Source: Laetmonice hystrix (Eukaryota). Taken from it: 64,000 nt of DNA. The stretch covers positions 25,546,001-25,610,000 of the forward strand of contig OZ249436.1 in NCBI GenBank assembly GCA_965235115.1, in the 5' to 3' direction. The notes under the pieces were generated by a model. The model did no database searches, was not told the origin of the DNA, and saw only the letters and a list, made by a program, of their open reading frames with translations. The position numbers were made by a program, and so were the translations under genes. This document shows positions 6,001 through 50,165 of this stretch, one piece after another. Position 1 is the first letter of the stretch; each line of letters begins with the position of its first letter.

Positions 6001-8509
6001 GACGCTGGAAGCACCATCAACTGAAATTCAGGCCTAGAACCCACCTCTCTCTACCAATATCATGCACCTAGTCCGTATACGAGGTTGTAATTTACTTTAA
6101 TCAACGGGCTGCGCCGCAGCAACCCACTCTGGTCTTTGCAATCTTTTTCAATATGCGTTAACATTTGTGACCAGCTCAACGCGCCTTGTAAAATTTTTCA
6201 AAGTGCGTAAAAGTGTGTGTCCACCCCGACACGCTTTCCAAACCACTATACCCACCGAGCGACATCCACTCAAATACAGGCTTCGACCGATCCTCACTGT
6301 GCCAATAATCCGCCACAAGGCAAATTCAGTCAATGCAAGCTGGAAAATCGAATGTCACACCTAATGCTTCCCCCCCCAGCACGTTAACTGAAAATAATCA
6401 ACTAGCTTGAAAACTAGAATATAGCTTTGTTTAGCTAACAATCTACTCTCCCAGCGCCATCAACTCGCATACAGGCGTAAAAGCAAACGCACTGCCCCAT
6501 ATAATGCTCCCAGCCTAAAACGATGTTGCAATTAATTTAAAATTAACAAGATGCACTAGTAATCCGATCCAAGCTTAATTACGTCATTGCTAGTTTCATA
6601 ATCAAATCTCACAGAAAATACCCCACCCGGGCAGATAACCTGAAAATATTCAACTTTTATCTCCAATGTATCCCTGTGCACCTAGTAGCACACAAGCGGG
6701 CCCAATTTGACATTCCAACACAAATACCGCAAATACCCGCCTAATGGCACAAAAAACTTTCTACCCCGTTGCAAGTCACATTAGCTTGCTGCTTGTCGTA
6801 AAAAATGGTGCAGACCATTTCTAAAGTCACAGTATCCCACTCGCGGCCTAATATTACGTTTGAGTATCCATATACGCTGCAAGCGGCAGGAACTCGAATA
6901 CAGGCCTAAAAGTAACCCCAGTCTAGCAATATCATACTCCCATGCCATATACGAGCTTGTAATTATCTTTAATTAATGGGCTCCGCAGCACCAACCCACT
7001 CCATTAACATTTGTTTACCAGCTTAGCGCACCTTGTAAAATTTGTTCAAGTGCGTAAAAATGCGTGTCCACCTCCACATACTTTAAAAATCACTATACCC
7101 ACCCAGCGACATCCACTCTAATACACGCCTAAAAGGAACTTCACTGTCCCATTTGATTCTCCAGCACGTATAGGATGTTTCAAGTAACATTCATCCACGG
7201 TCTGGCCCAATAACGTGCAACAAGGCATAGTAAGTCAATGCGAGCTCGCATGTCAAACCTAACCCGCCCCCCCACCACATGAGCTGAAAATATTCAAATA
7301 GCTTGAAAACTAGAATATAGCTTTGCTTAATACCATTATACCATCAACTCGCATTACAGGCCTAATGCGAAGCTCCCAGCCTAAAACGAGTTTCCAATTA
7401 ATTTAAAGTTAACAAGATGCACTAATAATCGATTCCAAGCCTAATTAGGTAATTGCTAGTTGGATAACCAAATCTCATACAAAATACACCCTCCCGGCAG
7501 ATGACCTGAGAATATTCAACTCTTATGTCCGATATATCCCTGTCCGCTTAGTAGCACCCAGCCGGGCCCCCATTTTGACATTGCAACACCAATACAGCAA
7601 GTGCCCAGCTAACAGCACAAATAACAGGATTCAGGGCTTCCTACCACGTTACAAGTCACAATAGATTGCTGCCTGTCGTAAAAATATACCAGACCATTTT
7701 AAAAAGTCACAGAACCCCAATCCGGCCCTAATATGGCACTCCCAGTACCAATAGACGCTGGAAGCACCATCAACTGAAATTCAGGCCTAGAACCCACCTC
7801 TCTCTACCAATATCATGCACCTAGTCCGTATACGAGGTTGTAATTTACTTTAATCAACGGGCTGCGCCGCAGCAACCCACTCTGGTCTTTGCAATCTTTT
7901 TCAATATGCGTTAACATTTGTGACCAGCTCAACGCGCCTTGTAAAATTTTTCAAAGTGCGTAAAAGTGTGTGTCCACCCCGACACGCTTTCCAAACCACT
8001 ATACCCACCGAGCGACATCCACTCAAATACAGGCTTCGACCGATCCTCACTGTGCCAATAATCCGCCACAAGGCAAATTCAGTCAATGCAAGCTGGAAAA
8101 TCGAATGTCAAACCTAATGCTCCCCCCCCCCCAGCACGTTAACTGAAAATAATCAACTAGCTTGAAAACTAGAATATAGCTTTGTTTAGCTAACAATCTA
8201 CTCTCCCAGCGCCATCAACTCGCATACAGGCGTAAAAGCAAACGCACTGCCCCATATAATGCTCCCAGCCTAAAGCGATGTTGCAATTAATTTAAAATTA
8301 ACAAGATGCACTAGTAATCCGATCCAAGCCTAATTACGTCATTGCTAGTTTCATAACCAAATCTCACAGAAAATACCCCACCCGGGCACATAACCTGAAA
8401 ATATTCAACTTTTATCTCCAATGTATCCCTGTGCACCTAGTAGCACCCAAGCGGGCCCAATTTTGACATTCCAACACAAATACCGCAAATAGCCGCCTAA
8501 TGGCACAAA
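1..8509. repeat. Satellite array, ~1754-bp dimeric unit (monomer A ~906 bp + monomer B ~848 bp), segment 1
   Basis: TTAACATTTG monomer starts at 1743 (A), 2649 (B) and 3497 (A) give the 1754-bp period. A and B are colinear but clearly diverged, while equivalent monomers in different units differ by only a few SNPs. Confidence 0.98.
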
Positions 8510-8810
8510 TCCGAGCTCGGCGCCAAAGAGCCGGGATCATTTATGGAGGAGAAACGAGGGGTTTGCGTAGGTATATTAGTATAGGTACTCGCACATATGT
8601 ATCTAGGACCCATGTCGTGTGCTCAGTATGTATTGTCGAGGTAATGTAAACAATAGCTGTACTCCCGTTAACCACCATCTTGGTTCTCGCCTCTCGCGCG
8701 GTCTGGGTCGGAAATGACGAAGGCGACTTGGGAGACGATCCGGAGGGTATAAATACAACCGAGCAGAAGAGTCGAGTTCTCTACCTTTGGAAGCTTCGTG
8801 GAAATCAGAC
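8510..8810 (+). repeat. Element 1 repeat A1 (copy A2 at 13989-14289)
   Basis: 301-bp direct repeat TCCGAGCTCGG...GAAATCAGAC; the two copies look identical by eye. Confidence 0.97.
8748..8755 (+). promoter_or_regulatory. Candidate TATA box (TATAAATA) in repeat A of element 1
   Basis: GGGTATAAATAC lies near the 3' end of A1, where a + strand transcript of such an element would be expected to start. Motif match only. Confidence 0.4.
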
Positions 8811-10370
8811 TGATTCGTTCCCCACACATCGGGTGAGTTCGTTCTATGGTTGGGACTTCGTTTCAAGTATACGGTGGAACGTGGTTTGTCGACTGTTTCT
8901 TATATTTGCCTTGTGTTTGACACCTATATGCAGGTGTTATGTCTAAAACAGTTCCAGTTATTCGTCTTTCGAGGCTGTATTATAGACCGGTACCCAGTAT
9001 TTATGTGTGTCTGAAATAGTCACATGCAGTGTTGCAGCACGCACAGTCGCTTCCACGTGGTCGACCTGACCTTTGTGGTTCGGGCTCGGCTAGCCTACTT
9101 GAAGCTCCTGGTAGACAATTTGTGTTACGAGTTTGTAGTTATTTTAGTTCACCACACATTGAGGGCGACTGACGACGTCGGCGGTGCTATGTTGTGTAAT
9201 TTTGTGTACGTATTTGTCCCAGAATGGTAGTGGGGGTACGATAATTTCAGTTTTGTTTTACCGTGGTTTACTCCGTGTTGAGTAGGGTAATAGCGTTCGG
9301 TACCAAGGTTGAGCTTATAGGCCTACAACGGTTTGTCCTGCCACGTGGTGTATCATGGTGGGGGTAGGCTCGTAAAAGTGTGAGGTAGGCCTACATTGTC
9401 GTGGAGTTGGTGTTTTTCGCTAGTCCTCACTATGTGGGGTTGAAGGTTGGTAGAAGTTATGTTGTGTCCTTCGGTGGTTTGGGACTTGACCAGTGAACTG
9501 CTGTAACTTGACACGCCGGGTGTTCTTTAATTTATCTAGTCCCGTCTTATATAGGCGTTTACTGCTGCTCCTAATTGCAACAGTTGGTATGGTTTTCGAA
9601 GTGCCCTCCCTAGATTATGTTAAATACAGTGTTTATCGCTTGGCGGCAATGCTTCTTGCCGTTTGCTTGGGGTGCTTTTTGGATGTGGGTATGCTGCGCT
9701 GGTATTCGAGCGGTATGTGGTGCTGTTATTCGGGTAGAAGTATTTATTTACGGTGGACAGATTAATCTGGATGTATTGGCACCAGCTTTAACCTGATAAG
9801 CTTTGGAGATGGTTTGATGAATGTAATTTTACCTGACTTGTTGGACTCTAATTTAGTGTCGCTGATAATTTTCTTTCTCTTGTAGCCAACGAGTGGCTTA
9901 TCCCTGATATTATATCTGGATCTGGACAGGTGCCCCTCACTGTTCAGTGTGGTTCATTGATGCAGTCGCATGGTAGGGGGATTTCGTCAATGTTATTTTC
10001 TATGTAGTAGTTTGGTATTCACTCCTTGTGGTTGCTTTGTTTTGAGTCTATCCATTTGTAAGTATTTGATTTTGTATTTTTGAGTTTAGTTGTCCCCTGA
10101 ACCTTACTAGGCAGACTACCTGTCCCTCTGTTTCAGGATTTACATCATTTAATCTAATTGCCCCTGATTAATAGGCGTGTAGATTTAGCTACCACCTCAT
10201 CTGAAAGTTTTTGTCGTTTAAGTATTTTGCCAATAGTTTGTAGACCCACCCCACCCCACCCTTCCTCGTGTTAGTGAGGTGTGTGTGTGTGTTGGAGGAG
10301 GGGTGTGGGGGGGGTGTTGTGTTTACGAATAACGGGGCTCTGCTGATGTGGGCTTAATGTGGTGTAACAT

Positions 10371-11090
10371 ACGGTGTGTGGTCCCTTCGGTTCCGCTTTC
10401 CCTTGTGGTTGTGTTAACTTGGTTGGGGGATGGGGCCGTGTTCCGTGGGGTTGACGGTGTGTGGTCCCTTCGGTTCCGCTTTCCCTTGTGGTTGTGTTAA
10501 CTTGGTTGGGGGATGGGGCCGTGTTCCGTGGGGTTGACGGTGTGTGGTCCCTTCGGTTCCGCCTTCCCTTGTGGTTGTGTTAACTTGGTTGGGGGATGGG
10601 GCCGTGTTCCGTGGGGTTGACGGTGTGTGGTCCCTTCGGTTCCGCTTTCCCTTGTGGTTGTGTTAACTTGGTTGGGGGATGGGGCCGTGTTCCGTGGGGT
10701 TGACGGTGTGTGGTCCCTTCGGTTCCGCTTTCCCTTGTGGTTGTGTTAACTTGGTTGGGGGATGGGGCCGTGTTCCGTGGGGTTGACGGTGTGTGGTCCC
10801 TTCGGTTCCGCCTTCCCTTGTGGTTGTGTTAACTTGGTTGGGGGATGGGGCCGTGTTCCGTGGGGTTGACGGTGTGTGGTCCCTTCGGTTCCGCCTTCCC
10901 TTGTGGTTGTGTTAACTTGGTTAGGGGATGGGGCCGTGTTCCGTGGGGTTGACGGTGTGTGGTCCCTTCGGTTCCGCCTTCCCTTGTGGTTGTGTTAACT
11001 TGGTTGGGGGGTGGTGTCGTGTTCCGTGGGGTTCTGTCCTCCCTTGATAGGATTACCTTGGGGTCGACGGTGTGGTCCCTTCGGTTCCGT
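10371..11090. repeat. 83-bp G/T-rich minisatellite inside element 1 (7 full copies plus a degenerate tail)
   Basis: ACGGTGTGTGGTCCC starts at 10371, 10454, 10537, 10620, 10703, 10786, 10869 and 10952. Confidence 0.96.
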
Positions 11091-11948
11091 CATCCCCGTT
11101 ATATTACAAGTTGTTTTACGGCAGATGTGCCTGGTTTCCGCAGGCTGCCACATCCTTTGGTGCATTGTACTTCTAGTCCCCATGATGGGTGATCGATGGG
11201 TACCTATGTATATGGATGCGAGGGGATGTCCCCTCCGCTCTGCCTTTTTCGAGGATTAGAGCTGAATCTTTATTTTCTTGTTTTAAAGTTGTTTAAGAAG
11301 TCATTTTAGGTCGGTAGGTTGTTAGTAAGTCAGGTCACTTCTACTGTATTTTATTGTGTACTATGTGTTTACGCTTTTTGGATCTGCCTCGCCTTCGGGC
11401 TATGGTGGGACCGTCTGCACTTAAATATCTTGTTCATTAACTTTGTAAATTATCTTGTCAAATTTTCAATGTACTATTTTGTTAATTTGGTAATATTAGG
11501 TATCTTCGATAAAATTATTAACAATGTTAGTCAGGGTTGTCACCTTAGTTAAATGTTGCCTATTTAGTTTTTACTCTGTGTTGAGGGCTATAATTATATT
11601 ATATATTTATCGTCATTTCGTCTTATAATTATATTATATATTTATCGTCATTTCGTCTAACTATATAATTTCAATGTTAACTATAAAGGTAATAAGTATT
11701 ATCGTATTTTTGGATGATTAATTTGATTTGTCATAATGTATAAGGGGAATTTATGCAATTTTTTGATATTGAGTTGATTGTATTTGTCATAGGGCAGTAA
11801 CTATTATTCCTCTGCCAGATGTTTCTTCGGTCTTTTGTTATTTTCCATTTTAGGTGGACGACAGGCTGAGCATATGGCTTTGGTGCATGGGTCGTGGGAC
11901 GTATTCTATATTTACACATTCATTTGTACTGATAATGAGCTGATGGAA

Positions 11949-12952
11949 GGCTGAGTATGTGTCTTTGGTAGACTTTGGAGGTTTACTGATGTGGGTAAGG
12001 TCAATTCCCCGTGTTTTGAACCTGTGATGTTGTTCGAAGGCTGAGTGTTGATTTATATTATTCAAGGTTCGGTATGGTTCAGAGGTTGTTTGGTTTAGAG
12101 GTTCCTTTAGCTACCATCTCTATGGAATGTGTTTCTTGTAGGTATGTGGAATACTTGCCGCGTAGAGGCTTAACCCATGTTTGTGGTTGGTCTCGGATAT
12201 CAAGGCCTTTAACTTGTTCATGTGGTTATTATGTGTATAGGCTTAACCCATGTTTGTGGTTGGTCTCGGATATCAAGGCCTTTAACTTGTTCATATGATT
12301 CTGTGGTTATTATGTGTATGTGATGTGGTTATGTGGTTATTATGTGTGTGTATATACGGAGATCAGTTATCTTTTTAAGTTTTGGGAAACCTCCCGGGCC
12401 CAAGAGGTCCGTTGTGGATGTACTCCCAAGCGTGAAGCGTTTCCACGGTTTTTGACTACGACTTTCATGGTTCCTGATACGTTTGGCTGAGTATGTGTCT
12501 TCGGTTGACTTTGGAGGTTTACTGATGTGGGTAAGTCAATTCCCCGTGTTTTGAACCTGTGATGTTGTTCGAAGGGCTGAGTGTCGAATTATATTATTCA
12601 AGGTTCGGTATGGTTCAGAGGTTGTTTTGGTTTAGATGTTCCTTTAGCTACCATCTCTATGGAATGTATTTCTTGTAGGTATGTGGAATACTTGCCGCGT
12701 ATAGGCTTAACCCATGTTTGTGGTTGGTCTCGGATATCAAGGCATTTAACTTGTTCATGTGATCCTGTGGTTATTATGTGTATGTGATGTGGTTATTATG
12801 TGTATGTGTATATACGGAGATCAGTTATCTTTTTTAAGTTTTGGGAAACCTCCCGGGCCCAAGAGATCCGATGTTGGATGTATGTTGGACTCCCAAGCGT
12901 GAACCGATTCCACGGTTCTTGACTACGACTTTCATGGTTCCTGCTACGTTTG
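11949..12952. repeat. ~0.5-kb imperfect tandem duplication inside element 1
   Basis: GGCTGAGTATGTGTCTT... starts at ~11949 and ~12486, and both copies end ...GACTACGACTTTCATGGTTCCTG.TACGTTTG. The first copy has an extra ~70-bp internal duplication. Confidence 0.9.
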
Positions 12953-13712
12953 CGCGTCCTTCACCTCCAGTATTTGTTATTCCAGTAGTCTTCCCTTTTT
13001 ACGTTACCTTATGCTTACGTTACGATCCGTGTATCATTAAGTGTTGGGCTCTGTAGCTGTCTGGTGGGTACTAGTTTGGTACCGTACAAAGTGGTAGGTA
13101 AGTGCTCGGGGGCGGCTAGATAGACGACGCGTTGAAGGAGGTGGATGAAGTAAGCTTTAATTGGAATGTTGTCCGGTGCAGTGACGAGGCAGCTTTGTCG
13201 CCCGGTTCAGTGACGAGGAAGTTTGGATTGTTGCCCGGTTCGGTTATTTATTATTAAATATTTATAGTATGGTCCCAGGTGGTAGAATGGGATACCGTCA
13301 CGTTTTCCCACCAGTTTCTCAGTCTATCACAATTTCCCAGGATAAGTAAGTATGGTGTAATGGAGTTTAATGGTGGGTGCTTCCTGTTTGGTCAAGCAGC
13401 TGGGTGTTATAACTTGTTAACCTGACGTTATGATGTTGACTCCAAGGATCTAAGGTCTTCTTCCGTATGTCTTATGATTCAAAGCCTTGATATGCTTGTT
13501 GCAGGTACACCAGATGCCCCTAATCGGACTGGATGATGATGGGTTCCGCTATCCGTTCGTTCAGGCCAGGAGATGATCTGTGCCTAATTTCCAAGTTGTG
13601 TCTGACGGTGATGCGTAGATTTGGCTCCTGGGGCGGTGTCAGCGGGTCGCGTTGGGAGTCTTTTCCCCTGCCTTCTTTGGTGGCTCCAGCTTCATCTTCG
13701 ATTCCGCTTAGT

Positions 13713-13985
13713 GGCATTGTCTCCACCTAATAAGGCATTACTATACCTATATCTATGTATTTTGGACTATGTATTTCCATATAATGTATTATCGGTTATG
13801 TATTATATTACTATAGTATTGTTATGTTGTTACATATATCAGTTACACCTTATATAGATTTATCATTTACCATATTATAATGTTTGTAGAGTCCCCCATT
13901 GCATGGGGTGATCAACGGGTTACTATGTATGTGAATAAAATGTAACCTACAGCAAAGCATTCCCGTTCTCCGAGTTTGACTGCAT
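13713..13985 (+). repeat. Element 1 repeat B1 (copy B2 at 14452-14724)
   Basis: 273-bp direct repeat GGCATTGTCTCC...GAGTTTGACTGCAT, with AATAAA about 50 bp before its end (13934; 14673 in B2). Confidence 0.97.
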
Positions 13986-14724
13986 AAATCCGAGCTCGGC
14001 GCCAAAGAGCCGGGATCATTTATGGAGGAGAAACGAGGGGTTTGCGTAGGTATATTAGTATAGGTACTCGCACATATGTATCTAGGACCCATGTCGTGTG
14101 CTCAGTATGTATTGTCGAGGTAATGTAAACAATAGCTGTACTCCCGTTAACCACCATCTTGGTTCTCGCCTCTCGCGCGGTCTGGGTCGGAAATGACGAA
14201 GGCGACTTGGGAGACGATCCGGAGGGTATAAATACAACCGAGCAGAAGAGTCGAGTTCTCTACCTTTGGAAGCTTCGTGGAAATCAGACGGCCCACCTCC
14301 GCCCCGACTCCTCCATGTTTCAACGCCTTTGCCTGGTTTAAATTATGTTTTTATGTAGACCTACTGGGTTTGGCTTGGGGTCAGCATGGCTGCCCGAGTT
14401 CTTTTCTCAGTTTGGTTGGATAGGGATGTATTTGGGTTCCTGGATGTTGTGGGCATTGTCTCCACCTAATAAGGCATTACTATACCTATATCTATGTATT
14501 TTGGACTATGTATTTCCATATAATGTATTATCGGTTATGTATTATATTACTATAGTATTGTTATGTTGTTACATATATCAGTTACACCTTATATAGATTT
14601 ATCATTTACCATATTATAATGTTTGTAGAGTCCCCCATTGCATGGGGTGATCAACGGGTTACTATGTATGTGAATAAAATGTAACCTACAGCAAAGCATT
14701 CCCGTTCTCCGAGTTTGACTGCAT

Positions 14725-17700
14725 AAAAAACTTTCTACCCCGTTGCAAGTCACATTAGCTTGCTGCTTGTCGTAAAAAATGGTGCAGACCATTTCTAAAG
14801 TCACAGTACCCCACTCCCGGCCTAATATTACGTTTCAGTATCCATATACGCTGCAAGCGGCAGGAACTCGAATACAGGCCTAAAAGTAACCCCAGTCTAG
14901 CAATATCATACTCCCATGCCATATACGAGCTTGTAATTATCTTTAATTAATGGGCTCCGCAGCACCAACCCACTGCATTAACATTTGTTTAACAGCTTAA
15001 CGCACCTTGTAAAATTTGTTCAAGTGCGTAAAAATGCGTGTGCACCTCCACATACTTTAGAAATCACTATACCCACCCAGCGACATCCACTCTAATACAC
15101 GCCTAAAAGGAACTTCACTGTCCCATTTGATTCTCCAGCACGTATAGGATGTTTCAAGTAACATTCATCCACGGTCTGGCCCAATAACGTGCAACAAGGC
15201 ATAGTAAGTCAATGCGAGCTCGCATGTCAAACCTAACCCGCCCCCCAGCACATGAGCTGAAAATATTCAAATAGCTTGAAAACTAGAATATAGCTTTGCT
15301 TAATACCATTATACCATCAACTCGCATTACAGGCCTAATGCGAAGCTCCCAGCCTAAAACGAGTTTCCAATTAATTTAAAGTTAACAAGATGCACTAATA
15401 ATCGATTCCAAGCCTAATTAGGCCATTGCTAGTTGGATAACAAAATCTCATACAAAATACACCCTCCCGGCAGATGACCTGAGAATATTCAACTCTTATG
15501 TCCGATATATCCCTGTCCGCTTAGTAGCACCCAGCCGGGCCCCCATTTTGACATTGCAACACCAATACAGCAAGTGCCCAGCTAACAGCACAAATAACAG
15601 GATTCAGGGCTTCCTACCACGTTACAAGTCACAATAGATTGCTGCCTGTCGTAAAAATATACCAGACCATTTTAAAAAGTCACAGAACCCCAATCCGGCC
15701 CTAGTATGTCACTCCCAGTACCAATAGACGCTGGAAGCACCATCAACTGAAATTCAGGCCTAGAACCCACCTCTCTCTACCAATATCATGCACCTAGTCC
15801 GTATACGAGGTTGTAATTTACTTTAATCAACGGGCTGCGCCGCAGCAACCCACTCTGGTCTTTGCAATCTTTTTCAATATGCGTTAACATTTGTGACCAG
15901 CTCAACGCGCCTTGTAAAATTTTTCAAAGTGCGTAAAAGTGTGTGTCCACCCCGACACGCTTTCCAAACCACTATACCCACTGAGCGACATCCACTCAAA
16001 TACAGGCTTCGACCGATCCTCACTGTGCCAATAATCCGCCACAAGGCAAATTCAGTCAATGCAAGCTGGAAAATCGAATGTCAAACCTAATGCTCCCCCC
16101 CCCCCAGCACGTTAACTGAAAATAATCAACTAGCTTGAAAACTAGAATATAGCTTTGTTTAGCTAACAATCTACTCTCCCAGCGCCATCAACTCGCATAC
16201 AGGCGTAAAAGCAAACGCACTGCCCCATATAATGCTCCCAGCCTAAAACGATGTTGCAATTAATTTAAAATTAACAAGATGCACTAGTCATCCGATCCAA
16301 GCCTAATTACGTCATTGCTAGTTTCATAACCAAATCTCACAGAAAATACCCCACCCGGGCACATAACCTGAAAATATTCAACTTTTATCTCCAATGTATC
16401 CCTGTGCACCTAGTAGCACCCAAGCGAGCCCAATTTTGACATTCCAACACAAATGCCGCAAATACCCGCCTAATGGCACAAAAAACTTTCTACCCCGTTG
16501 CAAGTCACATTAGCTTGCTGCTTGTCGTAAAAAATGGTGCAGACCATTTCTAAAGTCACAGTACCCCACTCCCGGCCTAATATTACGTTTGAGTATCCAT
16601 ATACGCTGCAAGCGGCAGGAACTCGAATACAGGCCTAAAAGTAACCCCAGTCTAGCAATATCATACTCCCATGCCATATACGAGCTTGTAATTATCTTTA
16701 ATTAATGGGCTCCGCAGCACCAACCCACTGCATTAACATTTGTTTACCAGCTTAACGCACCTTGTAAAATTTTTTCAAGTGCGTAAAAATGCGTGTCCAC
16801 CTCCACATACTTTAAAAATCACTATACCCACCCAGCGACATCCACTCTAATACACGCCTAAAAGGAACTTCACTGTCCCATTTGATTCTCCAGCCCGTAT
16901 AGGATGTTTCAAGTAACATTCATCCACGGTCTGGCCCAATAACGTGCAACAAGGCATAGTAAGTCAATGCGAGCTCGCATGTCAAACCTAACCCGCCCCC
17001 CAGCACATGAGCTGAAAATATTCAAATAGCTTGAAAACTAGAATATAGCTTTGCTTAATACCATTATACCATCAACTCGCATTACAGGCCTAATGCGAAG
17101 CTCCCAGCCTAAAACGAGTTTCCAATTAATTTAAAGTTAACAAGATGCACTAATAATCGATTCCAAGCCTAATTAGGCCATTGCTAGTTGGATAACAAAA
17201 TCTCATACAAAATACACCCTCCCGGCAGATGACCTGAGAATATTCAACTCTTATGTCCGATATATCCCTGTCCGCTTAGTAGCACCCAGCCGGGCCCCCA
17301 TTTTGACATTGCAACACCAATACAGCAAGTGCCCAGCTAACAGCACAAATAACAGGATTCAGGGCTTCCTACCACGTTACAAGTCACAATAGATTGCTGC
17401 CTGTCGTAAAAATATACCAGACCATTTTAAAAAGTCACAGAACCCCAATCCGGCCCTAGTATGTCACTCCCAGTACCAATAGACGCTGGAAGCACCATCA
17501 ACTGAAATTCAGGCCTAGAACCCACCTCTCTCTACCAATATCATGCACCTAGTCCGTATACGAGGTTGTAATTTACTTTAATCAACGGGCTGCGCCGCAG
17601 CAACCCACTCTGGTCTTTGCAATCTTTTTCAATATGCGTTAACATTTGTGACCAGCTCAACGCGCCTTGTAAAATTTTTCAAAGTGCGTAAAAGTGTGTG

Positions 17701-29335: not shown

Positions 29336-29907
29336 AGGGAAATGTGAGTGTTCGACTCCACCACTAGAATTTTCAAAATATTTTTATGGGGGATAGCCTT
29401 TGTCCTTAGGAGTACAAAGAAACAAAAAAAATCATATGTCACCGAATTAGATTTTTTTATACAGGCCTCCGTAAAAAATGGGTCCTTACTATAGGTTTCA
29501 ATGGGGAAAACAGGAATTTTTAGACATTTTGTCTAATAGTTAAAAAATGACCACCAATTTTCTCCTGAAACTCGGTGACAAGATAAAGTGGATCAAGACT
29601 AATAGTTTAAAACAAAAAAAATTGGGGGTCACCGAATCAACAAAAAAGTTACAGCCTGCCAAACAGTCAGTGCCTTGGTAAAACACGGGTCTTAACTATA
29701 GCATTCAATGGAGTAGACAGGTTCTGGCACACAGTTTGGTTCATTTTTTAAAAAATACTACTGATTTCCAGATCAAACTAGTTGACTGCATAAATAAGCC
29801 AAACAGTTTTCTTTTAAAGCTCACTACGCGGCGCTTTGAATACTCACATTTTCCCCGTGGTACCAACGCGGCTCACTAGGTGGCGCTTTAAACACTCACA
29901 TTTCCCT
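29336..29907. mobile_element. 572-bp non-autonomous DNA transposon (MITE), Kolobok-like
   Basis: TTAA is duplicated (29332-29335 and 29908-29911; single in other monomers). Perfect 17-bp TIR AGGGAAATGTGAGTGTT / AACACTCACATTTCCCT. Purine-purine 5' termini with a TTAA TSD fit Kolobok rather than piggyBac. Confidence 0.85.
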
Positions 29908-30202
29908 TTAATACCATTATACCATCAACTCGCATTACAGGCCTAATGCGAAGCTCCCAGCCTAAAACGAGTTTCCAATTAATTTAAAGTTAACAAGATG
30001 CACTAATAATCGATTCCAAGCCTAATTAGGCCATTGCTAGTTGGATAACCAAATCTCATACAAAATACACCCTCCCGGCAGATGACCTGAGAATATTCAA
30101 CTCTTATGTCCGATATATCCCTGTCCGCTTAGTAGCACCCAGCCGGGCCCCCATTTTGACATTGCAACACCAATACAGCAAGTGCCCAGCTAACAGCACA
30201 AA
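29908..30202. repeat. Satellite monomer A fragment between the MITE and element 2
   Basis: In-phase monomer A sequence TTAATACCATT...ACAGCACAAA. Confidence 0.97.
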
Positions 30203-30424
30203 GGCACGTTGTAACCGAAGGTTCAACGAATTTTATGCAGGAAAACACGAGAGGCCTACTGTCTGAATCAGTGCCGTCATGGCAACAACTTTCTGGGTCA
30301 TGTGTTGAATAATTATGTCACGCCGAATCCCATCATGCATCATGCCGCAACCGGTTGACGACCGTGACGTTGTCCTTGAATCTTCCCACTTTCTTCAAGA
30401 CACGCAGGGTAACGGTTTTCAGTG
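30203..30424 (+). repeat. Element 2 repeat A1 (copy A2 at 36738-36959)
   Basis: 222-bp direct repeat GGCACGTTGTAACC...GGTTTTCAGTG. Confidence 0.97.
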
Positions 30425-31354
30425 GCAACGGTCGCATTTTATCACTCTCAATCGTCTTAATTTTAGTTCATCCGAGGTTGAGTTTCTAGTCACGTCTTTA
30501 TAAAATGGTCACCCGTCTTTTGTACTTGCTTTCATTTTCTAGGCATAGTCTGTTGGCCTAGGTTTAGCCATCTTTATATCTCCTAGGAGTTAGGCCTAGG
30601 CTAAGCAAAATGGCGTCTGGGTACGTCTTGATTCTTACTCTTAGTGACAGCATTCATCTTCGTCGTCCTGTCACAGATACCCAAGGAGTTTAGTTCTAGA
30701 GTGAATCCGAATTTAACGTCACCGTTAGTTCTTTACTATCGGGGTAGATCTAGATCTAGTGAATGTGGCTGTAGTTTTGTTATAGACTAGATCTAGTTGA
30801 TTGATAATGATACTGATAGTGATAGACACTAGTCACTAGGCTAGTCAGGCTAGCCGGTCTAACTGGATCGACTTGTCTTATGTCATGAATTTGATACTTA
30901 GCCTGAGCCTACATTAGCGTTTAATCTAACGACGTTAGTTATGACTATATCTACTACTACTAGTTTAGAATCTAGTAACCTCGTTAGTCACTTATTGACT
31001 TAGTGTTTGACGTTGGCTCTGAGGACGGGTGGCTACGTGTCGTGTCTATTAAAATGCCATTGAATTTTGTCGTGCGGGAGTAGATCTACAAGAGTGACCG
31101 TTTTGTTTTCATCCATCATTCTGATTGGTTATTTCCTATTGCCAATGTTTCCCTACACATGTAAATTATTGTATAAATGCTACCTTAACCTGATATATTA
31201 CTACATTAAATTCATTCTATTGGCCACGGTTTCTTTATACATCATTATTGATACATTACAATTTACAGCATATTTGTGAATGATGATTGATATGTATCCC
31301 GTATATTGTACATTACGGGGCCTGTTTAATTAATCTGGCTACGTGTGTTGTATA

Positions 31355-33660
31355 TATTTTTTATTGCTACATTATACACCTTATGATTGCTATATTTAGA
31401 CCTTATTGGGAGACCATTTGGTTCTCTTTATTATTGGTCACATTTTATTACGATTGATATTAATGGGATTTAGATCCCTTATTTTTGTGTTGGGCTCTGT
31501 CATCGAGAGACTATACTGCTTTCTCTTTGATCAGTAGTTCCAATTTTCTTTTCAGTCTTTATATGTTTATTATTGCTACAGTATACACCTTATTATTGCA
31601 GACCTTATTGGGAGACCGTTTGGTTCTCTTCATTATTGGTCACATTTTATTATTTTTGATATTAATGGGATTTATATCCCGTATATTTTTGCGTTGGGCT
31701 CTGTCATCGAGAGACTATACTGTTTTCTCTTTGATCAGTAGTTCCAATTTTCTTTTCAGTCTTTATATGTTTATTATTGCTACATTATACACCTTATTAC
31801 TGCTATAGACCTTATCGGGAGACCGTTTGGTTCTCTTCATTATTGGTCACATTTTATTATGATTGATAAAAATGGGATTTACCGGTATATCCCGTATTTT
31901 TGTGTTGGGCTCTGTCATCGAGAGACTATCATGTTTTCTCTTTGATCAGTAGTTCCAATTTTCTTTTCAGTCTTTATATGTTTATTATTGCTACATTATA
32001 CACCTTATTATTGCTATAGACCTTATTGGGAGACCGTTTGGTTCTCTTCATTATTGGTCACATTTTATTATGATTGATATTAATGGGATTTATATCCCGT
32101 ATATATTTTTGCGTTGGGCTCTGTCATCGAGAGACTATACTGTTTTCTCTTTGATCAGTAGTTCCAATTTTCTTTCCAGTCTTTATATGTTTGTTATTGC
32201 TACATTATACACCTTATTATTGCTATAGACCTTATTGGGAGACCGTTTGGTTCTCTTCATTATTGGTCACATTTTATTATGATTGATATTAATGGGATTT
32301 ATATCCCGTATTTTTGTGTTGGGCTCTGTCATCGAGAGACTATCATGTTTTCTCTTTGATCAGCAGTTCAAATTTTCTTTTCATTCTTTATATGTTTGTT
32401 ATTGCTACATTATACACCTTATTATTGCTATAGACCTTATTGGGAGACCGTTTGGTTCTCTTCATTATTGTTCACATTTTATTATGATTGATTGATATTA
32501 ATGGGATTTATATCCCGCATATATATTTTTGTGTTGGGCTCTGTCATCGAGAGACTATCATATTTTCTCTTTGATCAGTAGTTCCAATTTTCTTTTCAGT
32601 CTTTATATTCTTTATTATTGCTATATTATACACCTTATTAAATATTGCTATATTTAGACCTTATTGGGAGACCGTTTGGTTCTCTTCATTATTGGTCACA
32701 TTTTATTATGATTGATTGATATTAATGGGATTTATATCCCGCATATATATTTTTGTGTTGGGCTCTGTCATCGAGAGACTATCATATTTTCTCTTTGATC
32801 AGTAGTTCCAATTTTCTTTTCAGTCTTTATATTTTTATTATTGCTATATTATACACCTTATTATTGCTATATTTAGACCTTATTGGGAGACCGTTTGGTT
32901 CTCTTCATTATTGGTCACATTTTATTATGATTGATTGATATTAATGGGATTTATATCCCGCATATATATTTTTGTGTTGGACTCTGTCATAGAGAGACTA
33001 TAATGTTTTCTCTTTGATCAGTAGTTCCAGTTTTCTTTTCAGTCTTTATATTTTTATTATCGCTACATTATACACCTTATTATTGCTATATTTAGACCTT
33101 ATTGGGAGACCGTTTGGTTCTCTTCATTATTGGTCACATTTTATTATTATGATTGGAATTAATGGGATTTATATCCCGTATATATTTTTGTGTTGGGCTC
33201 TGTCATTGAGAGACTATCATATTTTCTCTTTGATCAGCAGTTCCAATTTTCTTTTTAGTCTTTATATTTTTATTATTGCTACATTATACACATTATTAAT
33301 GCTGTATTTAGACCTTATTGGGAGACCGTTTGGTTCTCTTCATTATTGGTCACATTTTATTATGATTGATATTAATGGGATTTATATCCCGTATTTTGTG
33401 TTGGGCTCTGTCATCAAGAGACTATCATGTTTTCTCTTTGATCAGTAGTTCCAACTTTCTATTCAGTCTTTATATTATTATTATGGCTACATTATACACT
33501 TTGTTATTGCTATATTTAGACCTTATTGGGAGACCGTTTGGTTCTCTTCATTATTGGTCACATTTGATTATGATTGATATTAATGGGATTTATATCTCGT
33601 ATATATTTTTGTGTTGGGCTCTGTCATCGGGAAACTATCGGGTTTTCTCTTTGATCAGCA
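31355..33660. repeat. T-rich ~205-225-bp tandem array (about 11 copies) inside element 2
   Basis: TTTTG(T/C)GTTGGGCTCTGTCATCGAGAGACTAT (or a close variant) recurs at ~31483, 31687, 31899, 32107, 32312, 32527, 32752, 32971, 33186, 33395 and 33607. Confidence 0.95.
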
Positions 33661-33661
33661 G

Positions 33662-34480
33662 CTTATGCTGGATTATCACCCCCTTCTCATGTCTGGCTCA
33701 CATTTAGTTTACCCGATTGATTTTGTTTCAATACTTTGTTTTTGCTTTGATGATACAATATATTATTCTATTGGCCTGATATGACATTGAGAGATCGTTG
33801 GGCTTATGCGAGATTAGCAGCCTTTCTCATGTCTGGCTCACATTTTAGCCAATTGATTTTTGTTTCAATACTTTGTGTTTGCTTCGGCGATACAATATAT
33901 TATTGCTTTTGTCCTGATATGACATTAAGAGATCGTTGGGCTTATCCTGGATTAGCAGCCCTTCTCTGAGTTCTCATGTCTGGCTCACATTTACCCAATT
34001 GATTTTGTTTCAATACTTTGTGTTTGCTTCGGCGATACAATATATTATTGCTATTGGCCTGATATGACATTAAGAGATCGTTGGCCTTATGCTGGATTAG
34101 CAGCCCCTTCTCATGTCTGGCTCACATTTACCCAATTGATTTTGTTTCAATACTTTGTGTTTGCTTCGGCGATACAATATATTATTGCTATTGCCCTGAT
34201 ATGACATTAAGAGATCGTTGGGCTTATGCTGGATTAGCGGCCCCTTCTTATGTCTGGCTCACATTTACCCAATTGATTTGTTTCAATTCATATTATATTA
34301 CCTCAGTTGATGTGATATATTCACGATACATAGACTCTTTTATTGAGATATTATACTTTGTCTCTGCTTCAGTGATTCAATATATTTACTTGATATTGGC
34401 CTCATATGACATTGACTGAGGGATCGTTGGGCTTATGCTAAATTAGCAGCCCTTCTCATGTCTGGCTCATATTTACCCAA
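33662..34480. repeat. ~140-bp tandem array (about 5 copies plus a degenerate one) inside element 2
   Basis: GCTTATGCTGGATTAGCAGCC..TTCTCATGTCTGGCTCACATTT recurs at ~33662, 33802, 33940, 34085, 34222 and 34431. Confidence 0.9.
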
Positions 34481-36174
34481 CTGATTTATTTCACTTCATA
34501 CTGTATTACTTTACTTCATTACTGTTGATGTGACATGTACACGATACATAGTCTTTTTATTGAGATTATATAATATACTTTGTCTTTGCTTCAGTGATGC
34601 AATATTATATTTACTTGATATTGGCCTCATATGACATACCAGTCCCAAATTTTCAGTCTCTTAATATTTATATTATTATAATTTTTGCTTCAGTGATACA
34701 ACATTATAGTTAATTGATATAGGCCACTGCATATATGCCAATGCCAATGAAAGATCGTTGGGATTCGACTGTCCTGAGTTTGCAGCCCATCTAGGATCTG
34801 GCTCACATTTAACCATTTTGTTTACGTTGCAATTACATCGAGTGATGTGATGCGTTCACGACATAAATGTTGTATTCACTGTTAGGCTCAGCCATTGAGA
34901 GACCATCGAGTGTTCTGTTGGATCAGTGCGACAGCAGTTCAAATGTTCAGTCTCTTTTACATTTATTTTACTTTTTGCTGCTTCAGAGATACATTATTAT
35001 AATATTAACAATATTTTGTTGGCCGTATATGCCATTGGGAGATCGTGGGTTTCCCCTGGATTAGCAGCCTATCAGTATCACATGTGTGCCTAACATTTGA
35101 TTTACGTCCAATTTATATTATATTACATTTATGTTATTATACATATGTATTATTATTACATGTAAACCATGGTTTTTCGCCACTGATTGACATATCATCT
35201 AGGCTTATCTCTATCATCAAATTCGTAGATATCAGTTTAATTTCATAATCGTATATTACGTAACGATTTACATTATGCTAAATGAATTATTCAGTATAAT
35301 ATTATACTTGCCCTATACGGCCAATGTTATACACAACATGAATTATTCAATCTGGGCGTTTTGTCATTGACTTTGGCTCTACAATGAGCCCTTCAATTCA
35401 ATCAACTTCAATGAGCGGGTTGTTACCCTGGCCATGTTCCCTTGTACGGCTTCTGTTCATGATGGCGACTACACGATGGAGGTCCAAGCCCAAGCTCCCA
35501 CGGAATTCTCCGATCTCCATGCCCCCATGCAAGAGGGAGCGTCTCATTATGGGTCAAGCGGAACCGGGTCGGCCTCAACTATTTCGCAAGGATTCGCGGC
35601 TGGTGTCCAGACGGTTCCCATTTACGACTGTTCAGGGAGGTTGGAGATAGGAGTTCGGCCCGGCCTGAGCCTCGACTGGGTACTCCAAGTCTCTTCCAGA
35701 CCATTCTTGCTGTGGCCAGATGCAGTGGTGCAAGAGCAGATCTACGTGTGTGATCTGTATGATCATATAATATTAGCAAAGAATGCTTTTCACCAACAAT
35801 CGCGGTGTCTCCTTGAAACTCCGTATGGACGCTTCAGTTAAAATGGGATTTGGAGCGGTTTTTCGGATCTGACTAGATAATAGGCCTAGTCGGTGTCCAT
35901 CTTCGTTGGATCGACAAGATGTTTTTATTGGAGCTATACCTCCATTCTTTTTGCAGTTGCCCTGTGTGGGGAATATGTTTGAAACTCCATGGTTGAGTTT
36001 CATACCATAATATTTGTGACACAATCATTAACTCAACTTGACCTTCAAAGAATCAAGGAAACAAGGGAAAGCGGATGATTTGCATCGGTTGCAGAATAGG
36101 CGTTTCATTTCCCTGCATCCCTGCACTGTGTGTTGTGGGTGGCTCCACCTGCTTGTTCCAAGCAGGTTAGTGGC

Positions 36175-36734
36175 CTGCGTCGCCACTCACATTTAACTGT
36201 TCAACACATTCTTAACCCTTTAACACATATTTTTTAACGATAATGTTCCTATTTTTAGATTTGGGAACATAGACATTAATGGTTTCGAGACGGTGCAGTG
36301 TGGACTCACTGTCAAGAGTAATACCAATTCATGGACATTTAGTTATTGGTACCGTTAGTTGTAATTTTCTACCATATCTATTCCCATGACAATGCAGTGT
36401 GGGCTCATTGTCAAAAATGGGACATTAATGGTTTCGAGACGGTGCAGTGAGGGCTCACTGTCAAGAGTAATACCAATTCATGGACATTTACTTATTGTTA
36501 CCGTTAGTTGTAATTTTCTACCATATCTATTCCCATGACAATGCAGTGTGGGCTCATTGTCAAGAATGGGATGGTGACACCCTTTCTGTTCAGAAATAAC
36601 CTAATTGTCCTAAACCTTTAATTAATGTTGGACACGTGCAGTGTGGGCTCACTGTCCAACTTATATTTTTAATATTATAATAAACGGGTGTTGCCCAAAT
36701 AACAACATTATCTGTTTCCGAGTGTTGCCTGCAT
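36175..36734 (+). repeat. Element 2 repeat B1 (copy B2 at 37006-37565), with an internal ~149-bp tandem duplication
   Basis: 560-bp direct repeat CTGCGTCGCCAC...GTTGCCTGCAT. GACATTAATGGTTTCGAG occurs at 36272 and 36421; AATAAA at 36679. Confidence 0.97.
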
Positions 36735-37565
36735 AAAGGCACGTTGTAACCGAAGGTTCAACGAATTTTATGCAGGAAAACACGAGAGGCCTACTGTCTG
36801 AATCAGTGCCGTCATGGCAACAACTTTCTGGGTCATGTGTTGAATAATTATGTCACGCCGAATCCCATCATGCATCATGCCGCAACCGGTTGACGACCGT
36901 GACGTTGTCCTTGAATCTTCCCACTTTCTTCAAGACACGCAGGGTAACGGTTTTCAGTGCCTCCACCGCCCCACCTGCCGCCTTAGGCCATCTGTTTGAT
37001 GGGCTCTGCGTCGCCACTCACATTTAACTGTTCAACACATTCTTAACCCTTTAACACATATTTTTTAACGATAATGTTCCTATTTTTAGATTTGGGAACA
37101 TAGACATTAATGGTTTCGAGACGGTGCAGTGTGGACTCACTGTCAAGAGTAATACCAATTCATGGACATTTACTTATTGTTACCGTTAGTTGTAATTTTC
37201 TACCATATCTATTCCCATGACAATGCAGTGTGGGCTCATTGTCAAAAATGGGACATTAATGGTTTCGAGACGGTGCAGTGAGGGCTCACTGTCAAGAGTA
37301 ATACCAATTCATGGACATTTACTTATTGTTACCGTTAGTTGTAATTTTCTACCATATCTATTCCCATGACAATGCAGTGTGGGCTCATTGTCAAGAATGG
37401 GATGGTGACACCCTTTCTGTTCAGAAATAACCTAATTGTCCTAAACCTTTAATTAATGTTGGACACGTGCAGTGTGGGCTCACTGTCCAACTTATATTTT
37501 TAATATTATAATAAACGGGTGTTGCCCAAATAACAACATTATCTGTTTCCGAGTGTTGCCTGCAT

Positions 37566-40500
37566 AAATAACAGGATTCAGGGCTTCCTACCACGTTACA
37601 AGTCACAATAGATTGCTGCCTGTCGTAAAAATATACCAGACCATTTTAAAAAGTCACAGAACCCCAATCCGGCCCTAATATGTCACTCCCAGTACCAATA
37701 GACGCTGGAAGCACCATCAACTGAAATTCAGGCCTAGAACCCACCTCTCTCTACCAATATCATGCACCTAGTCCGTATACGAGGTTGTAATTTACTTTAA
37801 TCAACGGGCTGCGCCGCAGCAACCCACTCTGGTCTTTGCAATCTTTTTCAATATGCGTTAACATTTGTGACCAGCTCAACGCGCCTTGTAAAATTTTTCA
37901 AAGTGCGTAAAAGTGTGTGTCCACCCCGACACGCTTTCCAAACCACTATACCCACCGAGCGACATCCACTCAAATACAGGCTTCGACCGATCCTCACTGT
38001 GCCAATAATCCGCCACAAGGCAAATTCAGTCAATGCAAGCTGGAAAATCGAATGTCACACCTAATGCTTCCCCCCCCCCCCCCAGCACGTTAACTGAAAA
38101 TAATCAACTAGCTTGAAAACTAGAATATAGCTTTGTTTAGCTAACAATCTACTCTCCCAGCGCCATCAACTCGCATACAGGCGTAAAAGCAAACGCACTG
38201 CCCCATATAATGCTCCCAGCCTAAAACGATGTTGCAATTAATTTAAAATTAACAAGATGCACTAGTCATCCGATCCAAGCCTAATTACGTCATTGCTAGT
38301 TTCATAACCAAATCTCACAGAAAATACCCCACCCGGGCACATAACCTGAAAATATTCAACTTTTATCTCCAATGTATCCCTGTGCACCTAGTAGCACCCA
38401 AGCGAGCCCAGTTTTGACATTCCAACACAAATGCCGCAAATACCCGCCTAATGGCACAAAAAACTTTCTACCCCGTTGCAAGTCACATTAGCTTGCTGCT
38501 TGTCGTAAAAAATGGTGCAGACCATTTCTAAAGTCACAGTACCCCACTCCCGGCCTAATATTACGTTTGAGTATCCATATACGCTGCAAGCGGCAGGAAC
38601 TCGAATACAGGCCTAAAAGTAACCCCAGTCTAGCAATATCATACTCCCATGCCATATACGAGCTTGTAATTATCTTTAATTAATGGGCTCCGCAGCACCA
38701 ACCCACTGCATTAACATTTGTTTACCAGCTTAACGCACCTTGTAAAATTTTTTCAAGTGCGTAAAAATGCGTGTCCACCTCCACATACTTTAAAAATCAC
38801 TATACCCACCCAGCGACATCCACTCTAATACACGCCTAAAAGGAACTTCACTGTCCCATTTGATTCTCCAGCCCGTATAGGATGTTTCAAGTAACATTCA
38901 TCCACGGTCTGACCCAATAACGTGCAACAAGGCATAGTAAGTCAATGCGAGCTCGCATGTCAAACCTAACCCGCCCCCCAGCACATGAGCTGAAAATATT
39001 CAAATAGCTTGAAAACTAGAATATAGCTTTGCTTAATACCATTATACCATCAACTCGCATTACAGGCCTAATGCGAAGCTCCCAGCCTAAAACGAGTTTC
39101 CAATTAATTTAAAGTTAACAAGATGCACTAATAATCGATTCCAAGCCTAATTAGGCCATTGCTAGTTGGATAACCAAATCTCATACAAAATACACCCTCC
39201 CGGCAGATGACCTGAGAATATTCAACTCTTATGTCCGATATATCCCTGTCCGCTTAGTAGCACCCAGCCGGGCCCCCATTTTGACATTGCAACACCAATA
39301 CAGCAAGTGCCCAGCTAACAGCACAAATAACAGGATTCAGGGCTTCCTACCACGTTACAAGTCACAATAGATTGCTGCCTGTCGTAAAAATATACCAGAC
39401 CATTTTAAAAAGTCACAGAACCCCAATCCGGCCCTAGTATGTCACTCCCAGTACCAATAGACGCTGGAAGCACCATCAACTGAAATTCAGGCCTAGAACC
39501 CACCTCTCTCTACCAATATCATGCACCTAGTCCATATACGAGGTTGTAATTTACTTTAATCAACGGGCTGCGCCGCAGCAACCCACTCTGGTCTTTGCAA
39601 TCTTTTTCAATATGCGTTAACATTTGTGACCAGCTCAACGCGCCTTGTAAAATTTTTCAAAGTGCGTAAAAGTGTGTGTCCACCCCGACACGCTTTCCAA
39701 ACCACTATACCCACCGAGCGACATCCACTCAAATACAGGCTTCGACCGATCCTCACTGTGCCAATAATCCGCCACAAGGCAAATTCAGTCAATGCAAGCT
39801 GGAAAATCGAATGTCAAACCTAATGCTCCCCCCCCCCCCCAGCACGTTAACTGAAAATAATCAACTAGCTTGAAAACTAGAATATAGCTTTGTTTAGCTA
39901 ACAATCTACTCTCCCAGCGCCATCAACTCGCATACAGGCGTAAAAGCAAACGCACTGCCCCATATAATGCTCCCAGCCTAAAGCGATGTTGCAATTAATT
40001 TAAAATTAACAAGATGCACTAGTAATCCGATCCAAGCCTAATTACGTCATTGCTAGTTTCATAACCAAATCTCACAGAAAATACCCCACCCGGGCACATA
40101 ACCTGAAAATATTCAACTTTTATCTCCAATGTATCCCTGTGTACCTAGTAGCACCCAAGCGGGCCCAATTTTGACATTCCAACACAAATACCGCAAATAG
40201 CCGCCTAATGGCACAAAAAACTTTCTACCCCGTTGCAAGTCACATTAGCTTGCTGCTTGTCGTAAAAAATGGTGCAGACCATTTCTAAAGTCACAGTACC
40301 CCACTCCCGGCCTAATATTACGTTTGAGTATCCATATACGCTGCAAGCGGCAGGAACTCGAATACAGGCCTAAAAGTAACCCCAGTCTAGCAATATCATA
40401 CTCCCATGCCATATACGAGCTTGTAATTATCTTTAATTAATGGGCTCCGCAGCACCAACCCACTGCATTAACATTTGTTTAACAGCTTAACGCACCTTGT

Positions 40501-43517: not shown

Positions 43518-44614
43518 TAATCCTGCACCAAGTTTTGGGAACTAAAAACTTAGTTTTTTCAACATCGGCGCATTAAAACCCTTCTCGTGACGCGGAATCT
43601 CAGTCAATTACTTAAGGAATGGTAGCAAATAAAACTAGAGACTGCAGGCTATTTATCAGTCTAAAAATTACACCAGGTTGCTAAGTTATAATTTCTACAG
43701 AGGTGTTTGAAAAACGTATAAGTTTCTCAAAAAGTCGCAAAACTCATGACCTTTCGAGATTCGAGCTTTTGTCACGCAAAATCTGTCCCGACGACCTGTA
43801 CAAAAAAGTACCCAGAATTATTCCCCACATCGTAAGGTCTCCATGGATACCTTTCTTTTAGCGAGATTCCTTATAGTTTTGAATACAGCGAGCTTTGTTT
43901 GGAAATTTATAAGTTCCCAAAACTTTGATAATGACGTTAAATATCACAATAGACAGCCAGGCTCCAATCTAAGCTGTGTAGGATCAGAGGCCTACAGTGA
44001 TGTTTACGGAGGTATTATAATGCTATAATTTTCTGAGACTATCTACTGACCTTCGAAGTCTCTGCTTCTGTAGTATTTTAATCCATCTTTTAATAAAACG
44101 AGAGCTAGACAGCAAAATAGTGCAGTCTACGTTAGTCGTCACGACTGTGCCGCACGTCCTATCTATGACGTCACAGCCACAGTTGACTTAACGAGGCACG
44201 CACTGTCTTTTTGTCAGTGAAACATTGTAATATTATGTATCAAAATACGTAGTTAACTATTCTATGATGTCACAAGTGACAATGAAAGCACAAACAGATC
44301 GAACCCAGGCTATAAAATTGTAGCCAATGCAGATTATGAGGACGTTATCGCCGGCCAGTCTCTGACCCAAGCGATGACAACGAACGTGTTGACGGCTCTA
44401 CCAGCCCAAGACACCCGGCCAGTACACTGGTTTTTGAGCAGCAGCGCTCTAAAATAACACCTTCTAACTATAAAATAATGATTTACTTTTATAACATTCG
44501 GGTTTGCATAAATATTAAGACTAACTGCCCATACTATTATCACCTAGAACGATATAATAACTAGACACGTTGTGGCGATACCACAATTGATCCCATCCCC
44601 GGGGAGTCACGTGA

Positions 44615-50028: not shown

Positions 50029-50165
50029 TAATACAGAAGACGAAACCACACAATTTCTAAATCCCATCCCCTCCGTAGGGGATGGGATAATTAACATGTT
50101 CTGGGGTTTCAAGTGGGGGTTGAACTGGATGACCTCCCAAGTTCCCAATTTACGGTGCAGGACTA

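Follow-up and report, generated by a model that had tools for sequence, protein, structure and literature searches.

The internal repeat junctions of Ngaro-type retroelements in Laetmonice hystrix fold, by computation, into a two-part hairpin that is in register with the trinucleotide at which these elements integrate. Two such elements, E1 and E2, lie in the window, by which we mean the 64,000-nucleotide (nt) stretch of satellite DNA that was analysed (OZ249436.1:25,546,001-25,610,000, forward strand, assembly GCA_965235115.1; window coordinates below count from its first letter, and all window features are given on the forward strand). Both elements are laid out as split direct repeats in the order A1-interior-B1-AAA-A2-spacer-B2, and the B1/A2 junction is the part that forms the hairpin. 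Every B/A junction that could be located, 15/15 in this genome and 5/5 in families from other organisms, gave this computed fold. We read the hairpin, by analogy with integron attC and with CTXphi, as a folded-strand attachment (att) site, which we hold to be slightly more likely than not. The in-register junction hairpin is the finding worth pursuing.

The host satellite fills the window (1-64000) with a 1754-base-pair (bp) dimer, whose two monomers are ~70% identical, and belongs to an array at about 24.3-25.65 Mb of contig C1 (~1.35 Mb). Within the window it is interrupted by four inserts. E1 (8510-14724) lies behind a target half in monomer B that ends in the AAA core (8497-8509; empty site AAA/AAACT-TT). 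Its repeat A1 (8510-8810), from which the junction hairpin takes its inner stem and its returning arm, is 99.7% identical to A2 (13989-14289), and B1 (13713-13985) is 100% identical to B2 (14452-14724, or to 14727 with the AAA core of the right junction). The interior (8811-13712) is non-coding and has an 83-bp minisatellite in 8 copies at 10371-11033; the unique spacer (14290-14451) starts with a C-rich tract. E2 (30203-37565) follows a target half in monomer A that we call site A (30190-30202), with A1 (30203-30424) and A2 (36738-36959) 99.6% identical, B1 (36175-36734) and B2 (37006-37565, with the AAA core to 37568) likewise 99.6% identical, an interior (30425-36174) with 219-bp and 137-bp tandem arrays, and a spacer (36960-37005) that again starts with a C-rich tract. 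The left junctions read GGCAC-AAA-A1 in E1 and AGCAC-AAA-A1 in E2, both internal B1/A2 junctions read CTGCAT-AAA, and the right junctions read CTGCAT-AAA-AAACTT and CTGCAT-AAA-TAACAG, respectively. Excision of either element in silico gives back the exact empty monomer with no duplication, and an empty E2 site is present in one public contig, which passes over 30199-37566 with an ambiguity of 3 letters. The two sites are aligned positions of the two monomers (601 maps to 1488). By BLAST E1 and E2 have no significant similarity (best E 0.14) and do not share interiors, and no inverted internal complementary region was found in either. Repeats, junctions and excision thus all agree with a preliminary description of this DNA, which saw two unrelated split-repeat elements at paralogous AAA sites; its crossover within the shared AAA without target-site duplication (TSD) is borne out by the junctions and the restored empty site.

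The E1 hairpin (13980-14027) has an outer stem that ends at AAA 13986-13988, a 6/4 bubble and an inner stem, with a computed energy of -13.2 kcal/mol (z -2.5). In E2 (36728-36776) a 10-bp outer stem runs to AAA 36735-36737 and is followed by a 4/3 bubble and an inner stem (-14.9 kcal/mol, z -4.3). The set of 15 junctions from this genome consists of E1, E2, an intact autonomous Ngaro named N1 (below) and 12 families with a locatable B1/B2 pair. Such a pair was locatable in 14/27 of the stretches downstream of tyrosine recombinase (YR) matches. At all 15 junctions the last bases of B find their pairing partner in a copy that lies 23-40 nt inside A, and the outer stem halts at the core trinucleotide, followed by a bubble, usually with 1-3 extra bases on the 5' side, an inner stem and a loop. 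For thirteen of the 15, no more than 15 of 300 shuffled sequences reached the same stability, and B2/flank controls had z >= -1.0 in 13/15. In a register test devised after the junctions were known, 15/15 junctions passed against 83/2923 other 70-mers. For other organisms we used metagenome contigs with 57 usable loci, 8 of them with repeats and 6 (five families) with a placeable junction. All five of these repeat-located families fold alike (z -1.0 to -6.9). The hairpin test does not include L175 and L186, in which the contig stops within B2.

Across the 20 junctions, positions -4 to -9 and the inner stem vary in sequence and the pairing is kept: with pairing partners optimised, 300 cells gave 253 Watson-Crick, 15 G-T, 6 A-C and 26 other pairs. 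Two outer pairs are changed on both sides among six related junctions, a count from related sequences that does not translate into a probability. The sense strand folds better in 13/15 junctions here and in 5/5 from other organisms. Counted back along the returning strand, base 6 pairs with T in 17/20 junctions and base 7 in 13/20; because the paired T residues fall at these two positions, the folded junction mimics the sequence AAA-N5-TT. The junctions share the features of an attC-type site: an outer box up to the crossover, an unpaired spacer, an inner box and a variable loop, with homology to the target confined to 1-3 bases beside one cut. Some families have other cores (ATG, TAT, TAA; L126, L131, L231, L235), and there the hairpin is in register with the family's own core.

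The same AAA-N5-TT is found in the genomic targets. The assembly searched comprises 627 Mb in 35 contigs. For family 1, to which E1 belongs, 40 scored matches were taken from 570 candidates, and 30 right ends and 25/39 listed non-window left ends were examined; for family 2, that of E2, these were 30 right-end loci (29 with flank), 35/39 non-window left ends and an extra sample of 20 single A starts out of 95 listed. With the window copies included (26 and 36 left ends), the base at -1 to A1 is A at 26/26 family-1, 36/36 family-2 and 20/20 further family-2 ends, and the base at -2 is A at 26/26, 30/36 and 16/20, respectively. AAA is retained at 52/52 right ends whereas 3/26 family-2 left ends deviate at -2, which places the crossover at AA^A or AAA^. 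On the other side T is found at positions +6 (22/26) and +7 (23/26) of family-1 targets and, less often, of family-2 targets (13/26 and 15/26), and TT at +6/+7 in 10/14 ends of YR-linked elements. The integration target is thus AAA/N5-TT. The donor spacer was looked for in the right flanks and found in 0/52. The preliminary description had instead proposed a GCA(C/T)AAA recognition site; this heptamer precedes 1/26 family-1 ends, 5/36 family-2 ends (all five at site A) and 0/20 further family-2 ends, and its absence from every non-satellite site examined rules it out. Taken together, the Ngaro identity, the dispersal and the target motif of E1 and E2 are in our view close to certain.

How could a folded junction be used? 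In the known model reverse transcription would rebuild the B/A junction. On the sense strand this junction would then fold so that an asymmetric bubble separates an inner stem from an outer one ending in AAA/TTT, and a Cre-like YR would bind both the folded site and a genomic AAA-N5-TT, a function that we assign by inference. One pair of strands would be exchanged at AA^A or AAA^, and replication or repair would finish the insertion, by analogy with attC x attI and CTXphi recombination. The reason why 1-3 bases of homology suffice and no TSD arises would be that a single strand exchange is completed by replication or repair. YRs cut at the 5' edge of the overlap, from which the sense strand is predicted to be the cleaved one. 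The folded-site model fits the homology of 1-3 bases, the 0/52 donor spacers in right flanks, the better folding of the sense strand and the polarity of the YR. We would tentatively extend it, a step that we consider plausible though short of probable: Ngaro-type and perhaps all DIRS-order elements may integrate like integron cassettes and CTXphi, through a folded single-strand site that mimics a degenerate AAA-N5-TT target and with exchange of one strand pair, and one family may prefer a megabase satellite niche.

A textbook DIRS mechanism would use a double-stranded circle with a 3-bp junction, and the hairpin would serve RNA folding, template switching, priming or closing of the complementary DNA (cDNA) circle. 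The B1/A2 junction is indeed inside the transcript, the sense strand has more G-T (15) than A-C (6) pairs, as RNA would give, the YR is Cre-like, and the 3-bp junction model is a published one in the sections cited (PMC3266345, PMC7192593). However, such a mechanism leaves unexplained why the outer stem stops at the crossover and why the fold has the AAA-N5-TT spacing, the unfolded junction has no fixed second arm at +6/+7, and a two-strand exchange over a non-homologous spacer should sometimes shift the donor spacer rightward, against the 0/52 observed. We consider it rather unlikely. Another reading takes the inverted arms as sites that proteins bind on double-stranded DNA, be they accessory or cruciform-forming, with no single-strand fold. 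Inverted repeats are usual in YR sites and supercoiling could make a circle extrude this very structure, yet the arm spacing varies over 23-40 nt and the letters of the inner stem vary with pairing kept, which points to structure instead of fixed binding sites and makes this reading improbable.

Several points weigh against a folded single-strand att site. RNA would form the same hairpin, and the G-T pairs speak for RNA no less than for sense DNA; a double-stranded circle with an extruded cruciform would give an identical picture. The DIRS-1 cDNA that has been observed is, in the sections cited, antisense and mostly linear (PMC7192593). The YR is nearest to Cre, and the entry for the integron integrase IntI, 2a3v, ranks 48. 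Family 2 is weak on the TT half of the target, with both T in 7/26, and site A has a motif rank of just 45-67 yet was filled at least 3 times independently. The 13/27 YR-downstream stretches without a B1/B2 pair fall outside the hairpin test, the register test is post hoc, and optimisation chose the partners in the 20-junction comparison. Blind scanning of the metagenome loci under a loose rule did not exceed chance (19/57 vs 13.0); a strict scan gave 8/57 vs 1.8 expected, with settings tuned on this genome that recover 9/15 training junctions and include low-complexity hits. The proposed mechanism itself is built from sequence and a computed fold.

At least 94 YR matches are present in the genome. 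N1 occupies 2687-9792 of locus L121 on the minus strand and starts 2.7 kb to the right of the window in the same array; its hydrolase, gag-like, reverse transcriptase (RT) and YR frames are open, its repeats are split and its core is likewise AAA, and Pfam confirms its YR, RT and hydrolase. A second N1 copy is on C18, outside the satellite. N2, on contig C20, is 8180 bp long with open hydrolase, gag-like, RT and YR frames. A methyltransferase domain, whose absence sets Ngaro apart from PAT and DIRS1, was not detected by Pfam among the four frames of N1, and neither N1 nor N2 has another long frame. In both, a GDSL/SGNH hydrolase frame lies upstream of gag (L121 8797-9420, L151 5858-6493). The YR has its catalytic motifs, and its nearest structures are those of Cre (TM about 0.70). 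Its clade is common in marine invertebrates, the nearest named homologues being from oysters, lancelets, a scallop and a snail. Viral contigs gave no relative.

E2 and N2 are 81% identical over the last 1.4 kb, 86% in repeat A and 85-88% in the 219-bp array, and the interior of E2, homologous to N2, retains a decayed hydrolase start (~30570-30720), a gag remnant (~35460-35630) and an RNase H remnant (~35720-36120). The shared ends and array and the decayed hydrolase, gag and RNase H make E2 a deletion relative of some N2-like element. Neither E1 nor E2 was matched by the first 12 stretches downstream of YRs; the partner was found among the next 15. For E1 the link is weaker than for E2: its junction and ends are common to two YR-linked families, L139 and L142, and a search of its interior detected no Ngaro protein remnants. 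N1 was rejected as direct partner of either element, since neither has DNA similarity to it and no protein remnant is left in E1. The two elements are new members of Ngaro, young and non-autonomous. E2 would be mobilised in trans by an autonomous Ngaro, as its homology to the intact N2 suggests, and E1 probably likewise, given the ends that it has in common with YR-linked families; the RT of the partners suggests movement through an RNA intermediate. The Ngaro or DIRS-order identity proposed earlier is supported by the A1..B1-A2-B2 repeats, the absence of a TSD and partners with RT and YR. That N1 and N2 carry both enzymes also agrees with the proposal of non-autonomous families with YR partners, and it excludes a Penelope-like element (GIY-YIG endonuclease) or a Crypton (YR without RT). 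Nearly all families have a C-rich tract behind A2 (window 14292-14305 and 36960-36975; L121, L125, L126, L129, L132, L134, L138-L143, L148, L159, L174), and B repeats mostly start with TGG or GG; these are candidate priming or template-switch signals, and the TGG might serve in tRNA priming.

Both families are dispersed, with tens of copies each. Other than the window copies, 24/25 family-1 and 47/55 family-2 copies lie outside the satellite, so that the satellite specificity first proposed does not hold. The satellite, estimated from ~8086 motif hits times the monomer length at roughly 7 Mb or ~1.1% of the assembly, holds 1/25 family-1 and 8/55 family-2 non-window left ends. The latter count excludes L108, whose match is 21 nt and whose right flank is not satellite, as well as L153-L155, which were chosen by position (except that L155 is the right end of L090), and L041, for which the data set has no left end. 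Family 1 is not enriched (p 0.25), whereas family 2 remains in excess after likely duplicates are merged (6/52 events; p 3e-5 at a 1.1% share, p 0.005 if the satellite were 3% of the genome). An excess in the satellite, through insertion bias or retention, is thus seen for family 2 and not for family 1. Besides C1 24.3-25.65 Mb, a megabase array of this satellite family lies at about 8.6-10.0 Mb of C18, and arrays are 74-86% alike between contigs. Many copies look like solo A-spacer-B units (L153, L154, single A starts), and tandem B-A-B-A ends occur at L143, L146, L159 and L174. A 10.7-kb family-1 copy, L020, carries other DNA, which had no match to N1 proteins within the portion examined.

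Could the satellite be a dedicated multi-copy landing pad, used by several families through a recombinase that recognises GCAYAAA? The family-2 share (8/55 left ends, 6/52 events, against ~1.1% of the genome), the independent insertions at site A (window copy, L043, L032 group), and the intact N1 in the same array would all suit such a system. As a site-specific system it is nevertheless largely refuted and, we think, highly improbable: family 1 is not enriched, 47/55 family-2 copies are elsewhere, GCAYAAA is missing from all non-satellite sites examined, satellite insertions use 7 positions on both strands, 1757 exact copies of site A are empty against 5 filled right junctions, the mean motif weight of the satellite is below background (0.29-0.49 vs 0.89-0.95), and on C1 the inserts of both families are confined to the last 0.27 Mb of the ~1.35-Mb array. 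Because the satellite offers less motif weight than background, the family-2 excess would come from chromatin, local bias or retention, and we infer that family-2 copies have been collected or retained in satellite arrays ~tenfold over expectation. Retention, tandem duplication and gene conversion might even account for both the excess and the same-site copies with no insertion bias at all, which we regard as possible if doubtful. L032, L041 and L042 have common flanks and are 3-4 nt apart over 2.6 kb, L153 and L154 are twin copies 9.5 kb apart, unrelated elements with terminal inverted repeats also crowd the window, and copies bunch at the edge of the C1 array. On the other hand the excess survives the collapsing of duplicates, family 1 has none, and the window copy, L043 and the L032 group are 17-26 nt apart.

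The coincidence of two families at one satellite position had been put at a chance of ~1 in 875. On a uniform basis with strand counted, the chance would be 1 in 1754; under the target motif measured from other copies, the chance of both families at the same or a paralogous site rises to ~1 in 56, which replaces the earlier figure. A family-1 matrix, trained on 24 non-satellite sites and applied to the 3508 strand positions of the dimer, ranked the N1 site 1, the L090/L120 site 2 and the E1 site 3. Of 11 insertion events in the satellite, spread over 7 distinct positions on both strands, 4 fall on site A or B. For family 2, site A is a genuine hot spot, though a minor one: the window copy, L043 and the L032 group are 17-26 nt apart over 2.6 kb, and the first two have their nearest relatives outside the satellite at 6 and 4 nt, respectively, so that the three represent independent insertions. 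The earlier interpretation is thus right in part: site A is a hot spot with at least 3 independent insertions, among the 7 satellite positions in use. At site A CAGCACAAA agrees with the donor arm at 7/9 bases, and perhaps family 2 favours the site because of this match. Altogether the best explanation is that the satellite is not a specific target and that a few good motif sites per monomer explain most of the repeat hits. The satellite claim is not supported beyond a family-2 bias, which has precedents, and one hot spot.

The window has further features. A 572-bp element with terminal inverted repeats and TTAA on both sides (29336-29907) is presumably Kolobok-like; two other copies lie at the same satellite position, L090 of family 2 and, within a diverged array, L120 of family 1. 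A 6.6-kb composite insert at 43518-50165, with inverted ends and TA on either side, contains a 925-bp internal duplication and short TAACCC runs, and a 325-bp tandem duplication lies within the satellite at 63040-63685.

With the junction hairpin and the AAA-N5-TT target there are two short, defined substrates on which the model could be tested directly. For the DIRS order, the sections cited describe recombinase substrate and specificity as untested, and the standing model assumes a double-stranded circle though single-stranded cDNA has been observed (PMC7192593). If the folded-site model were correct, folded-strand recombination, described so far for integrons and CTXphi in the sections cited (PMC4792948), would also act in animals, and a Cre-like enzyme needing 1-3 bases of homology and leaving no duplication would be a eukaryotic structure-specific single-strand integrase. 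The hairpin could also assist in finding element ends during annotation.

Among known systems, TOC1 of Chlamydomonas and kangaroo of Volvox belong to the PAT lineage with split direct repeats, and TOC1 is non-autonomous with a unique spacer. Split repeats, a trinucleotide junction and the absence of a TSD are textbook for the order in the sections cited (PMC3266345, PMC7192593, PMC9210276, PMC4157794, PMC13465315). E1, E2 and their partners resemble Ngaro in the A1..B1-A2-B2 repeats, the order gag-RT/RNase H-YR, an SGNH/GDSL hydrolase, the lack of TSD and solo repeat units (PMC9210276, PMC8547959, PMC4157794, in part). Unlike coding Ngaro, E1 and E2 are non-coding, and the hydrolase precedes gag in N1 and N2 whereas it follows YR in the amphibian Ngaro described there (PMC9210276). 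In the literature sections searched, which do not include the founding Ngaro and PAT papers, there is no description of a junction hairpin or an extended target for Ngaro/PAT; a prior description is possible.

DIRS1 likewise integrates through a shared trinucleotide, with AAA/TTT listed for XtDIRS2 and XtDIRS3; single-stranded cDNA intermediates are described and DIRS-1 accumulates in centromeres, but its termini are inverted and it has an internal complementary region, unlike E1 and E2 (sections of PMC3266345 and PMC7192593). That region could provide the paired strand that the hairpin would provide in Ngaro. In the published DIRS1 model, as far as the section cited goes, the circle is made double-stranded before integration, and the YR specificity is stated to be untested (PMC7192593). 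A YR retroelement at one position of a tandem repeat has a counterpart in the telomeric TATE of trypanosomatids, and SIRE, the A2-B2 solo unit of VIPER, is like the solo A-spacer-B copies here (PMC6681497, in part); Ngaro elements of Cafeteria are biased to the EMALE repeat compartment (PMC8547959, in part). In contrast to TATE and the EMALE Ngaro, most copies of the E1 and E2 families lie outside the repeat, so the bias has precedent and the families are not repeat-specific.

Two further comparisons lie outside retroelements. Integron attC is also a folded single-strand site, in which ~3 bases are conserved (AAC/GTT), the central spacer is unpaired, one arm has extra bases, the loop varies and one strand is exchanged, but integrons are bacterial DNA cassettes without RT and IntI has a special I2 domain where the Ngaro YR is Cre-like (sections of PMC2727003 and PMC4792948). 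Membership of the integrons was rejected, as the YR is closest to Cre and not an IntI-family integrase; by analogy the resemblance would be one of function and not of membership. The attP(+) site of CTXphi, recombined by XerC, is alike in being a folded single-stranded site with homology beside one cut, resolved by replication and irreversible; it differs in the use of host XerCD, one long dif site and ~90 nt between the arms (PMC4246890, in part). For E1 and E2, by comparison, the recombinase is encoded by elements, their partners, and the target is degenerate.

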